From an uncultured Planctomycetota bacterium (lineage in GTDB: Bacteria > Planctomycetota > Phycisphaerae > Tepidisphaerales > Tepidisphaeraceae): a stretch of 64,000 nt of DNA. Positions 40,374 to 51,610 of the stretch are shown piece after piece. The position numbers and the translations under genes were made by a program. The notes below the pieces were generated by a model. It was not told the origin of the DNA. It made no database searches and saw only the letters and a list, made by a program, of their open reading frames with translations. Where the stretch lies: the NCBI GenBank assembly GCA_963841915.1, contig CAWJEN010000004.1, forward strand, positions 86,529 through 150,528. Direction: 5' to 3'. How positions within the stretch are numbered: position 1 is the first letter of the stretch; each line of letters starts with the position of its first letter.

Positions 40374-42242
40374 ATGCGTTGGAGTCAGACCCTCATCCCG
40401 ACCCAGAAACAAGACCCCGCCGACGCGACGATCGCGAGCCACAAGCTCCTCGTCCGCGGCGGCTTCGTGCGCCAGCTCCAGGCCGGTTCCTATACGTTCC
40501 TGCCGCTGGGCTGGCGGGTCATGCGGAAGATCATGGACATCATCCGTGACGAGATGGAAAAGGCCAGGGCGACCGAGGTTCAGATGCCGGCCCTGCAGCC
40601 GATCGAGCTGTGGGACGAGAGCGGCCGAAACGAGAAGTTCGGCGACGACATGCTGCGGGCCGAGGATCGCCGCGGCAACGTCAACGCGCTGGCCCCGACG
40701 CACGAGGAGGCGGTGACGGAGATGGCGCGGGCTTATGTGAAGAGCTACAAGCAGCTGCCGTTGAACGTGTGGCAGATGCAGACGAAGTTCCGCGACGAGC
40801 CGCGGCCGCGAAGCGGTCTGCTGCGGGTGCGCGAGTTCATCATGAAGGACGCCTACAGCCTCGATAAGGACCAGGCGGGCCTCGACCGGTCGTTCGATCT
40901 GATGTTCGCCGCGTACAAGAACATCTACCGCCGCTGCGGCGTTCCGGCGATTGCGGTGGACGCCGACAGCGGCGCGATCGGCGGCAGCGAGAGCATCGAG
41001 TTCACGGTGCCGTGCGCGGCCGGCGAGGACATCGTCGTCAGCAGCGACAAGGGTAACTACGCCGCGAACGTCGAGAAGGCGGCGATCGGCGAGCGGCCGT
41101 GGAGCTTCGAGGGCGAGCCGACGGGCGAGCTCGAGGACGTGTCGACGCCGAACGCGAAGAGCATCGACGACGCCAGCAAGGCGATGAAGGTCAAGCCGCA
41201 GCACTTGCTCAAGTGCCTGCTGTTCAGCGTCGCCGGCGAGACGCTGAAGGCGACTTATGTTCTCGCGGTTGTTCGCGGCGATCACATGCTGAATGAGGCC
41301 AAGCTGCGAGCGATGCTCGAGAGCGAAAGCCGCGGCTCCGTCGCTCTGGAGCCGGCGAGTGAGCAGCAGGCGACGCGCGATGGTTGGAAGCTTGGGTTCA
41401 TCGGCCCGCACGCTGTCGTCAACCGCGATGACACAAAACTCGTTGTCGATCCCGACGCGGCGCAAGGTGTTAAATTCTGGGCACCAGGCGGAAACGCGAT
41501 CGACACGCACCAAAAGCATTTCAATTGGGAACGCGACCTGCTTCGGCCGATGTCGACAACTCTGAACGCGGGAACGAATGATGCAATCGTCGTCTGTCGC
41601 CACCCGCGGAGCGACATCGAAGAGCAGATGCGACATCTGCCGCCCGAGGATCACGTGTATCCGGTGACCGTCGCCGACATCCGCGACGCCGTCGACGGCG
41701 ACCCGTCGCCGCTGGGCGACGGCGGCGTCCTCAAGGAATCCCGCGGCGTCGAGGTCGGGCACGTCTTCAAGCTCGGCACCGTCTACTCCGAGAAGATGGG
41801 CTCGACCTTCCTCGACGAGGACAACAAGGAACAGCCCGTCATCATGGGCTGCTACGGCATCGGCGTCGGGCGGATCATGCTGTCGGCCGTCGAGACCAGC
41901 CACGACGAACGCGGCATTCAGTGGCCGGTCAACATCGCGCCGTTCGAGGTCGTCGTCACGCCGATCAAGTACGACGGCGTCGCGAAGGACAAGGCCGACG
42001 AGCTCTACGCCGAGCTGAAGGCGAAGGGCGTCGATGTCCTGCTCGACGACCGGGACGACCGGCCCGGCAGCAAGTTCGCCGATGCCGACCTCATCGGCAT
42101 ACCGCTCCGCCTCGTCGTCGGCGACCGTGGGCTGGAGAAGGGCGTCATCGAGCTCAAAGACCGCCACACCGGCGAGACGATCGATGTCGCGACGGCAGAG
42201 GCAGTCGATGTCGTCGTCAGCCGATTGGCCGCGTTGCGATGA
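40374..42242 (+). CDS. proS: Proline--tRNA ligase (bacterial type with INS editing domain)
   Basis: [54 protein letters not shown]. Confidence 0.97.
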
Positions 42243-42287
42243 GCGTCGACCATTGCGGCAAAGTGGGCAACCCTTTACCGTGTCGAC

Positions 42288-43148
42288 GTGAGCCAACCGT
42301 CCCGCATGTTGTCGCGTCGCAGCCGTGTGCTTCTGCCCCTGGCGGCGGCGGCGTTGCTGTCGATCGTCGCCGTCGGTCCGTTGACTGCCCAGCAGCAGCC
42401 ACGGAACAATCCGCGTGACGGGCTGCTCGATGAGGAGCAGATCAATGCCATCAAGCAGGTCGAGCTTCAGCCGGCTGATGCCCGCGGCAGGCAGCCGCGG
42501 ATTCGGTTCGACAATCGTGTCGTGCAGCGTTACGTCGAAGCCAACGGCCTCGACTTCCGCGAGTTCAACAACCAGCCCGACCTGGCCAAGGCGCTGACGA
42601 TCATCGAGGCGGGTGACGAAGACATGGTGAAGGACGTGCGGATCATCACCGATCCCGCGGCGATTGCTGTCTTTAAGGACGCAATTCATCCGGCCGTCCT
42701 GCAGGGCTGTGCCACCAGTGCGTGCCACGGCAGCAATGACGAAGCACGCAACGCGGGCCTTCGCCTCTACAACGACGGTCGCGGCGACGACGTCGTCTAC
42801 ACGAATTTCTTCAACCTCAGCAGCTACAAGGTCAAGGTCGCCAATCCGACCGGCAACGCGTTCGGCGGCCCCGAGACCGTCGGCCGTAAGCTCATCGACC
42901 GCGCCACGCCGCAGACGTCGCTGCTGCTGGAGTACATGATCCCCGCGACCGCCGCGACGACGCCGCACCCGAAGGTCGACGATGAAGACCTGCGTCCCCG
43001 CTTCACCGATCCGACGGATCAGGGGTACGTGCAGCTCCGCAACTGGCTCATCAACATCCTCGAACGCAACACCGGCGGCTACGGCGAAGAGGAGAACGGC
43101 AACGCGACCCAGCCGGCCGAAGACGGTGCAGACGCACCCGGTAACTGA
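42288..43148 (+). CDS. Secreted hypothetical protein with a CxxxxCH motif
   Basis: Signal peptide; GCATSACHG; SLLLEY...HP pattern. Confidence 0.7.
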   Translation: MSQPSRMLSRRSRVLLPLAAAALLSIVAVGPLTAQQQPRNNPRDGLLDEEQINAIKQVELQPADARGRQPRIRFDNRVVQRYVEANGLDFREFNNQPDLAKALTIIEAGDEDMVKDVRIITDPAAIAVFKDAIHPAVLQGCATSACHGSNDEARNAGLRLYNDGRGDDVVYTNFFNLSSYKVKVANPTGNAFGGPETVGRKLIDRATPQTSLLLEYMIPATAATTPHPKVDDEDLRPRFTDPTDQGYVQLRNWLINILERNTGGYGEEENGNATQPAEDGADAPGN

Positions 43149-49875: not shown

Positions 49876-50055
49876 CGCGGCGGCCGCGGCGTATTCGTGG
49901 CGCGAAAGCATATGCTGCATCGTTCAAAGCTTGAGGATGTGCTGCGGCGGACGCAAATTGTCCCACGTGCAACGTTCGGCTCGTGTCGGAGCTTCGAGAT
50001 CTCAACGGCGGCCGTGTTGCAACGCAGCGAGGTCGGCCGCGTCTACGGTGACGGC

Positions 50056-51610
50056 ATGAGCAACGATCAAGCGACGCGGACCGAGCGGGATTCGATGGGC
50101 GAGATGCAGGTGCCGATCAACGCGCTGTACGGCGCGTCGACAGCGCGGGCGGTCGAGAACTTCCCGATCGCCAAGCGCCCGCTGCCGCCGGCGATGATCC
50201 ACGCATTCGGCCACCTCAAGGCCGCCTGTGCTCAAGCCAACAAGGACCTCGGCAAGCTCGAGCCGGAGATCGCTGATGCCATTATCGAAGCCGCCACGGA
50301 AGTGGCGGACGGCCTGCACGACGAGCACTTCCCGGTCGACGTCTACCAGACCGGCTCCGGCACGTCGACCAACATGAACGCCAACGAGGTCATCGCGAAC
50401 CTCGCCAACCAGAAGCTCTCGTCCGGTTCCGCGCGAGTGGATCGGGTGCGAGCGCATCGACGCGAGCCCCGAGCGTGAGCGAGCGGGTTCTGGCGCTGGG
50501 TCAGAACCCCTCGCTCACGCTCAGGGCTCGTCCGGAGGTGCGGACGGTTCCTCGAAGCCCCGCGTCCACCCCAACGACCACGTCAACATGGGGCAGTCGA
50601 GCAACGACACGTTCCCGACTGCGATGCACATCGCGGCGGCAATCGCTTTGGCCACCGACTTCTATCCGGCATGGGAAAAGCTCTATGACGCGCTTTGGAG
50701 TAAGGCGAGCCAGTACGACCTGATCGTCAAGATCGGGCGGACGCACCTGATGGACGCGACCCCGATCCGTGTTGGACAGGTGCTCGGAGGATACACCGCC
50801 CAAGTCGAGCGACTGAAGAACACGATCGGCTTCATGAGCGGTCGGCTCGCAGCGAATTTACCCATTGGTGGAACGGCGGTCGGCACGGGGATCAACACGC
50901 ATCCGATGTTCGCTCAAAAAGTGGCGGCGAGTCTCACCGAGCGTCTTCCACTTGAAATGCCGGCGATAAAGGTCAAGTTCGAGGAGGCGAAGAATCACGT
51001 CGCCGCACAGGCGGCGAAAGACGATTTCGTCCACGCGCATGCCGAACTCAAGGTCGCTGCCGTCTCCCTCTCCAAGATCGCCAACGATATCCGCCACCTC
51101 GGCTCCGGGCCGCGGTGCGGCATCGGCGAACTCATCCTCCCGGCCATCCAGCCCGGCAGCTCGATCATGCCCGGCAAGGTCAATCCCGTCCTGTGCGAGA
51201 GCGTGATGCAGGTCGCCTGCCGCGTCATCGGCAACGACGCCACCGTCACCATGGCCGGCATGGGCGGCGTCGGGTCAATCTTCGAGCTCAACGTCGCCAT
51301 GCCCGTCATGATCGATGCCTTCCTCGAAAGCGTCACGCTGCTGAGCAATGTCTGCGACGTCTTCACGGACAAGCTGCTCGTCGGCATGGAGGTCGACGAG
51401 AAGCGGTGCAAGGAGCTCATCGACGAGAGCCTGATGCTCGTGACGGCCCTCAACCCGCTCATCGGCTACGACGAGGCGGCCAAGGTCGCCAAAAAGGCCC
51501 ACGCCGAGGGTCGGACGATCCGAGACGTCATGAAGGAGCGGGGCGACGTCGACGAGGCGACGCTCGACGCCGCATTGGATCCGCGGAGCATGACCGAGCC
51601 GTCGGCGTGA
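50056..51610 (+). pseudogene. fumC: Class II fumarate hydratase, frameshifted near 50420-50475 (real lesion or assembly error)
   Basis: The 5' part ([22 protein letters not shown]) stops at 50478. The 3' part (HPNDHVNMGQSSND, GRTHLMDATP, GSSIMPGKVNP) is in a different frame. Confidence 0.9.
50463..50530. repeat. REP-like palindromic element inside fumC
   Basis: Arms CGAGCCCCGAGCGTGAGCGAGCGGGTTCTG and CAGAACCCCTCGCTCACGCTCAGGGCTCG (one mismatch, one bulge) with a 9-nt loop. Confidence 0.8.

Follow-up and report, generated by a model that had tools for sequence, protein, structure and literature searches.

Saturated windows inside housekeeping genes of a planctomycete genome and their possible link to in-frame REP elements

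Why should the middle of an enzyme gene look scrambled when the sequence on either side of it looks unusually uniform? The question is raised by three unrelated genes, proS, a gene of the EEP hydrolase family and fumC, which lie within about 11 kb of one another in a 64,000-nucleotide stretch of an uncultured bacterium of the Tepidisphaeraceae (assembly GCA_963841915.1, contig CAWJEN010000004.1, positions 86,529 to 150,528; hereafter the window). A first-pass annotation of the window had seen in each gene an internal segment of about 400 nucleotides rich in A/T-ending codons (the core) between flanks nearly free of them, and had suggested hotspots of repeated breakage with error-prone repair, or segment replacement, acting on core genes. 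The footprint is real and unusual, and the comparative sequence evidence makes a cause of this kind plausible: it is quite possible, though we stop short of calling it probable, that nicking by a transposase associated with repetitive extragenic palindromic (REP) elements, a RAYT, followed by error-prone repair, creates fast-evolving windows of about 400 bases beside in-frame REP sites.

The compositional contrast drawn by the first-pass annotation holds up. In the genome that carries the window (G000, with the window on its contig C4; 3.63 Mb, 64% GC, 93.8% complete), which its named homologues assign to the Phycisphaerae, a simple codon model called 2,918 genes, and 19.5% of the 925,515 synonymous sites scored are A/T-ending. 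The share is 27-33% in the three cores as against 2-11% in their flanks, and lnt (110/508) and purK (96/359), which had been named as ordinary genes of the window, are indeed ordinary. All three affected genes are on the plus strand. proS (40374..42242) encodes a proline--tRNA ligase with an editing (INS) domain according to Pfam and NCBIfam, and its core lies within that domain (41241..41639; 42 of 126 codons A/T-ending), between a left flank at 40554..41240 (13/218) and a C-skewed right flank at 41640..42173 (11/174; 85% synonymous identity within the genus). The EEP-family gene (45117..46448; PF03372) has its core at 45828..46241 (37/135), with 3/175 A/T-ending codons in the left flank (45297..45827) and 5/65 in the right. 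fumC, a class II fumarase gene (50056..51610), is read in two frames with Lyase_1 matches in both pieces; its core at 50633..51058 (40/136), which measures 408-435 nt across 22 genomes, is bordered by a left flank with 13/115 and a C-skewed right flank at 51059..51607 with 12/173. Fisher tests of core against flanks gave p=2e-13 for proS, 2e-11 for EEP and 2e-7 for fumC, values that are optimistic because the boundaries were chosen after looking. The genome-wide check of composition at third codon positions (GC3) that the first-pass annotation had called for bears the pattern out: G000 contains 39 runs of at least 60 codons without an A/T-ending codon where 0.4 are expected, the run of 102 in the EEP gene being the third longest, and a scan for core/flank profiles returned 41 events as compared to 9-18 in ten within-gene shuffles. 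proS ranked third in that scan, and EEP and fumC fell below its thresholds.

Comparison with relatives, namely four congeners (G001-G004) and about 30 fumC loci from the family, confirmed that the cores are far more divergent than their flanks. Among G000, G002, G003 and G004, the fumC core retains 51-60% amino-acid and 37-52% synonymous identity, and the flanks 89-98% and 80-93%; the frameshifted core of G001 was omitted from these ranges, and the genome median of synonymous identity in the congener comparison is 56%. Within the fumC subclade to which the window belongs, six of the seven other within-genus pairs have 46-62% amino-acid identity in the core (the remaining one has 79%), whereas for the ordinary fumC clade the same region stands at 84% in one within-genus pair and 87% in another. 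Taken over a slightly wider interval, the proS core has 49% amino-acid identity in the genus of the window (g1) and 47% in another (g69), as against 76-93% in four ordinary genera, and the EEP core has 28-42% identity to G001-G003 over 45837-46196 with flanks mostly at 70-90%. The alignment places sharp fumC core boundaries at positions common to five congeners, and since these genomes were assembled separately, the cores are not the chimeric joins that the first-pass annotation had named as a possible undoing of its proposal. In G001, the orthologues of proS, EEP and fumC lie 0.7-1.6 Mb apart and still have their cores, indicating that the property belongs to the genes; the clustering within 11 kb has no role in the system. 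The unpublished genome G006 contributes sequence to none of the claims.

The change acts at the level of DNA, since residues that are conserved in the protein are scrambled synonymously: at 50 near-invariant columns of the fumC core, synonymous identity is 0.38 and the A/T share at third positions (A/T3) is 0.36, as compared to 0.72 and 0.07 at flank columns. Base usage at fourfold sites shifts toward evenness in the cores (A 0.17, C 0.33, G 0.31, T 0.20), with A at 0.02 and T at 0.03 in the flanks. Synonymous identity in the fumC core (0.415) barely differs from the random expectation (0.403), ordinary windows retaining an excess of 0.054-0.09, and the synonymous sites of this core are saturated. 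In a protein tree, eleven hot genomes have core terminal branches of 0.6-2.6 substitutions per site that radiate star-like from an unresolved base, and flank terminal branches of 0.007-0.13, except that off-frame residues in the flank row of G000 lengthen its branch; the corresponding values in seven ordinary rows are 0-0.29 for the core and 0.05-0.15 for the flank. The flank tree comes from a quick run, and support values are rough, the bootstrap of the core tree having yet to converge. Five database genome matches were obtained, two of which were omitted as apparent duplicates of loci already included, and the database fumC rows were picked by similarity to the G000 core, which biases them toward consensus-like sequences.

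Database searches with three cores found no close donor: the best matches reach no more than 62%, 62% and 52%, and for two different fumC cores the top matches were in many cases the same consensus-like proteins. Long core tips together with the lack of a donor among the sequences searched agree better with local hypermutation than with import, which may still have come from lineages outside the sample. Of the two options raised by the first-pass annotation, repeated local diversification of core genes is thus upheld, while replacement from a sampled donor is not. A metagenome search with the exact flank pattern matched 0 contigs, and a protein scan recovered distant relatives only, at 50-64% identity.

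The flanks tell a different story. Exact runs of at least 50 nt occur in a flank in 22 of 231 genome pairs and in the core in none, and about 2% of ordinary 330-nt windows contain such a run. The longest exact flank matches, 167-174 nt, join G002, G004 and G041, the last a member of another genus, and the flank tree groups G041 with G002 and G004; the longest exact match between genera in the core is 30 nt. This sharing suggests recombination between species, the longest matches being between short-read assemblies, where cross-talk could inflate them.

What, then, marks the affected genes? In fumC, a REP doublet hairpin with a DNA fold of -37 kcal/mol (z -7.7) occupies a loop at 50463..50530. 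It shares the reading frame of the downstream part of the gene and is separated from the core by a tract encoding RVHPND...TAMH (50561..50632, plus strand), whose DNA is nearly identical in the alignment of five congeners. The hairpin is one of 26 REP copies in G000, most of them intragenic, and a REP stands at the identical fumC site in G001 and G003. The other two genes have their counterparts in relatives: G002 carries an in-frame REP doublet in the EEP gene, at the site matching ~45677 (HL|PPG) within the left flank, and G041 carries one in proS, an intact doublet of 132 nt (-63.4 kcal/mol) that matches the REP model where two ordinary family members have a spacing of 48 nt. At the corresponding place, the proS of the window has an unstructured in-frame stretch of 144 nt running from FNW to ADIRD (41529..41672, plus strand), possibly a decayed REP element. 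Just before the fumC hairpin, near 50420-50441, a +1 frameshift interrupts the gene, which may be an assembly error or a true break; frameshifts near REPs in G000 (2 in 12.9 kb, as compared to 10 in 207.8 kb elsewhere) are too few to judge. Both the hairpin and the frameshift had escaped the first-pass annotation. The same fumC loop holds an unrelated, hairpin-like, in-frame insert in G032 (L225).

A candidate enzyme is also present. The valS gene of G000 contains, in frame and with REP doublets on both sides, a Y1/HUH domain that exceeds the PF01797 cut-off and falls short of the NCBIfam cut-offs for RAYT and for IS200. Its motifs, NHLH and YTVDRQ, supply the HUH motif, the catalytic tyrosine and a Y...Q signature, suggesting that it is likely a RAYT-like REP transposase, tentatively of class 3 TnpA_Y1 by the described signature. 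CCGA or CTGA occurs within the arm of the REP matches and may correspond to the 5' CnGA foot of the class 3 hairpin. Together with three PF00817 matches for Y-family polymerases elsewhere in G000, one of which has an internal stop, this candidate nuclease agrees with the first-pass view that any machinery would act in trans. In relatives (L074, L056 and L073; G004 and G002), hrpA and the C-terminal end of an oxidoreductase also hold an in-frame RAYT unit of the valS type, the hrpA of G000 having a REP only. A DinG-like helicase of three genera (G105, G037 and G086; L276, L280 and L281) carries at one site an in-frame Y1 domain of a different kind, with a Y..N motif.

The association between REPs and the core/flank profile extends beyond the three genes. 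The profile is also present in carB, valS, lysS, putA and crtI, five of the seven further REP-bearing genes that have orthologues; in the remaining two, hrpA and an amidohydrolase gene, it is not clear. Nine of 60 tracts of very high GC3 lie within 1 kb of a REP, a zone covering ~1.5% of positions, and such a tract accompanies 12 of the 19 REPs inside genes, the share being 17% at random sites and 29% for conserved genes; these 19 cluster in fewer genes and are not independent. Tracts of high identity to G001 occur in 5 of 9 REP genes and 43 of 419 others, and to G004 in 5 of 8 and 21 of 211. Divergent segments in general were rejected as hot regions, with only 3 of 72 showing the signature, two of these at most 1 kb from a REP. 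Other repeat families of G000 have no consistent core/flank profile; at least six further families of 25-43 copies each were seen, almost all outside genes.

The windows may differ between species because the transposase nicks DNA nearby and error-prone repair follows, and the steps beyond the comparative pattern, from nicking and refilling to selection and recombination, are all inferred. A Y1/HUH transposase would repeatedly cut single-stranded DNA at the hairpin or some way off; TnpAREP is described as cleaving single-stranded DNA 5' or 3' of a REP, mainly nearby but also at discrete distant sites (Corneloup et al., PMC8266576; for this and the other papers given by identifier, what is said holds for those parts of the text that were available). 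Error-prone refilling over a few hundred bases would then add substitutions of all types and small indels, in line with repair hotspots that are strongest in the first kb from a break (PMC6443146). Selection would retain the reading frame and the catalytic residues, and homologous recombination, also between species, would resolve in the conserved flanks, raising their GC3 and keeping them alike while the diverged core no longer pairs. The hairpin would in time be mutated or lost, and the scars would slowly revert to host composition. Diversification would most likely be collateral damage rather than an evolved function. The bolder version, in which a hairpin in a gene acts as a programmable local mutator, with the HUH nuclease hypermutating a fixed window of ~400 nt, so that essential enzymes diversify throughout a planctomycete clade, and recombination in the flanks shuttling the products between species, strikes us as quite unlikely; if true, it would be a counterpart of diversity-generating retroelements (DGRs) that works free of reverse transcriptase, and would offer RAYTs a candidate for their long-sought function.

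Several findings weigh against nicking at REPs followed by error-prone repair. No mutation or nick was observed, and same-species contigs of the one listed run (share 0.06) miss the cores. A/T-rich fumC cores without a match to the G000 REP pattern exist in G086, G037 and G105, the genomes with the Y1 domain in a DinG-like helicase, and the loop of several hot fumC genes currently lacks a hairpin. The RAYT domain of G000 is itself ordinary between its two REPs (A/T3 0.16; synonymous identity 0.52 to G003). Cores sit off-centre from the REP, mostly downstream of it (upstream in proS) and often with a conserved tract between, and 49 of the 60 tracts of very high GC3 have no known link to a REP. 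As for the flanks, local codon bias accounts for most of their high identity (0.82-0.83 observed at synonymous sites as compared to 0.74-0.76 expected), and whether biased conversion during recombination raises GC in bacteria is disputed (PMC11879095). The known repair hotspots, moreover, fade over tens of kb and have no sharp edge at 400 nt in the account available (PMC6443146), and a prospective test had only two informative genes, one of them positive.

Exchange of cassettes would require no raised mutation rate: old or foreign alleles would be swapped between species by recombination in the flanks, the cores, too diverged for pairing, would be spared GC-favouring recombination, and their diversity would persist through balancing selection or because they hitch-hike with a homing REP/RAYT unit. 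This we consider doubtful, though worth weighing seriously. The sharp boundaries common to five congeners, the exact flank matches (with none of comparable length in the core) and the position of G041 beside G002 and G004 in the flank tree all agree with it, as does the finding that short-read contigs of G002-G004 end in or beside the proS and fumC cores. Against exchange speak the star-like core tree with its long tips, the lack of any donor above 62% for the three cores searched and the fact that no core is common to different genera, and the longest flank matches are those that cross-talk may have inflated.

A second alternative turns the order of events around, in that some trans-acting mutator or intrinsic fragility would make the windows, and REP and RAYT units would merely insert there, either since breaks and single-stranded DNA are frequent at these places or since the loops tolerate inserts. 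Hot cores in genomes without the REP family of G000, the different hairpin family in the fumC loop of G032 and the ordinary state of the RAYT domain in G000 would all be expected if the hotspots came first. Yet the three REP-free hot genomes that were checked all carry another in-frame Y1 domain, the motif at core boundaries that the first-pass annotation had proposed looking for was not seen by eye, and the searches recovered neither a reverse transcriptase in G000 nor a DUF559 nuclease in five genomes, deaminases and other nucleases lying outside their scope. On balance this order of events seems unlikely.

Ordinary variability of protein regions such as the editing domain, surface helices and loops in highly expressed, GC3-rich genes, or errors of assembly, is very improbable and has been largely refuted. 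The proS core coincides with the editing domain and conserved genes are richer than random sites in high-GC3 tracts, as such variability would have it, and there are ~31 frame switches per 100 kb in G001 (~5 per 100 kb in G000), where the nuoD core was rejected as an off-frame artefact; the argH and aquaporin cores of G000 are possibly off-frame too and were not used as core evidence. But the same regions are conserved in ordinary genera and in database fumC homologues (identity 0.74 in the core, 0.79 in the flank), invariant residues are scrambled at synonymous sites, and separately assembled genomes have the same boundaries. Targeted mutagenesis by a DGR or a deaminase, which an in-frame variable region with fixed boundaries might bring to mind and for which the first-pass annotation had suggested checks, is hardly credible, as RVT_1 (PF00078) has no match in the 93.8% complete G000 or in G001 (three of five genomes searched have one) and blastn and tblastx with the three cores find only the cores themselves and short chance matches, and so, with neither reverse transcriptase nor template copy, this is not a DGR, while A and T both rise at fourfold sites (indirect evidence, there being no template to polarise the changes) and A/T-rich patches mix transitions with transversions. 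Deaminase-like patches were also sought as such and rejected, with counts of 6 and 6 against a null of 1-5 in G001 and of 4 and 1 against 0-4 in G004, and with a mixed spectrum. In the recG of G001 (L110), ~25 codons at about 459-485 of the G000 orthologue have unchanged amino acids and mostly A/T-ending synonymous changes.

The first-pass annotation had further read a switch in strand preference at synonymous sites, G to the left and C to the right of the core, as a possible trace of resection at double-strand breaks. The switch itself is seen at proS (G excess +0.16 to the left and -0.12 to the right) and fumC (+0.05 and -0.13), with +0.07 and -0.03 at EEP, and these values stand at the 95th-99th percentile of a genome-wide mosaic: fourfold sites in G000 alternate between G and C preference at the kb scale with twice the binomial spread, many switches falling near gene boundaries. 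As a general rule, however, the skew, which had been the argument for resection, had to be given up, since the left exceeds the right in just 23 of 41 core/flank scan events and 11 of 16 REP loci (p=0.083), and switches from G to C are about as frequent (125) as those from C to G (109). An effect of gene position, with G toward the 5' end and C toward the 3' end, was considered and is absent in G000. The C-rich right flank of fumC does recur in relatives (in the four congeners with sequence, its first 84 codons have a G excess of -0.25 to -0.34), while a G-rich left flank beside the fumC core does not.

Two further features of the genome were noted in passing. Between fumC and the EEP gene, at 48544-49875 of the window, lies a 443-residue open reading frame without a Pfam match, whose 5' third is A/T-rich and whose 3' part is strongly G-skewed. 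The palindrome TGTTCCACGTGGAACA matches 95 sites with at most one mismatch, on all G000 contigs except C2 and often in pairs 1-2 kb apart (for example C5:803832 and 804896, or C6:60659 and 63030); we take it to resemble parS, yet it is spread genome-wide.

Essential genes are commonly assumed to evolve slowly and evenly, and here a fixed window within them has changed about ten times faster than its flanks, or more, throughout a clade. As proS, valS and lysS are common phylogenetic markers, this concerns more than the genome at hand. The in vivo role of RAYTs, a standing question, becomes testable at loci that offer named REP target sites and a measurable footprint; if the hairpin truly directs mutagenesis, it would constitute a compact targeted mutator. 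The flanks, in turn, provide a natural test of the disputed proposal that recombination raises bacterial GC (PMC11879095).

Among known systems, some resemble these loci in layout and others in the kind of change. DGRs likewise produce an in-frame variable region inside a gene, but the cores described here come without reverse transcriptase or template repeat, are not adenine-specific and lie in housekeeping enzymes. Homing endonucleases and inteins leave co-conversion tracts around an element that lies in frame within an essential gene, and different species have the flanks in common; the REP/HUH unit differs in having no protein splicing and in that the adjacent host sequence is scrambled. 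Localized hypermutation is known from around the plastid gene ycf4 of legumes (PMC7058334, citing Magee et al. 2010). The acceleration of ycf4, ascribed to repeated breakage and repair, is specific to the locus and the lineage and involves both point and length mutations, as here, but it concerns a single locus of an organelle with no mobile element implicated in the text available, whereas several bacterial genes and a candidate nuclease are involved here (PMC7058334). Mutagenic break repair in E. coli combines substitutions and indels beside a break, and Y-family genes are present here too; its hotspots are transient and fade over ~60 kb, as compared to sharp windows of ~0.4 kb that persist across genera (PMC6443146). 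Our literature search, which mostly left subscription journals outside its scope, returned no report of saturated windows with sharp boundaries lying next to REP sites in essential genes of bacteria, though a local influence of REPs on both mutation and recombination is mentioned in the available part of one review. That REPs occur within housekeeping genes is established (Di Nocera et al., PMC3733652), and class 3 Y1 proteins have been described, mainly from planctomycetes (Quentin et al., 10.1101/279083). While neither hypermutated windows nor GC3-rich flanks next to REPs appear in the accessible accounts of REP/RAYT systems, their class 3 TnpA_Y1 members share with the present loci an HUH tyrosine transposase flanked by hairpins that recur throughout the genome (10.1101/279083, PMC8266576).

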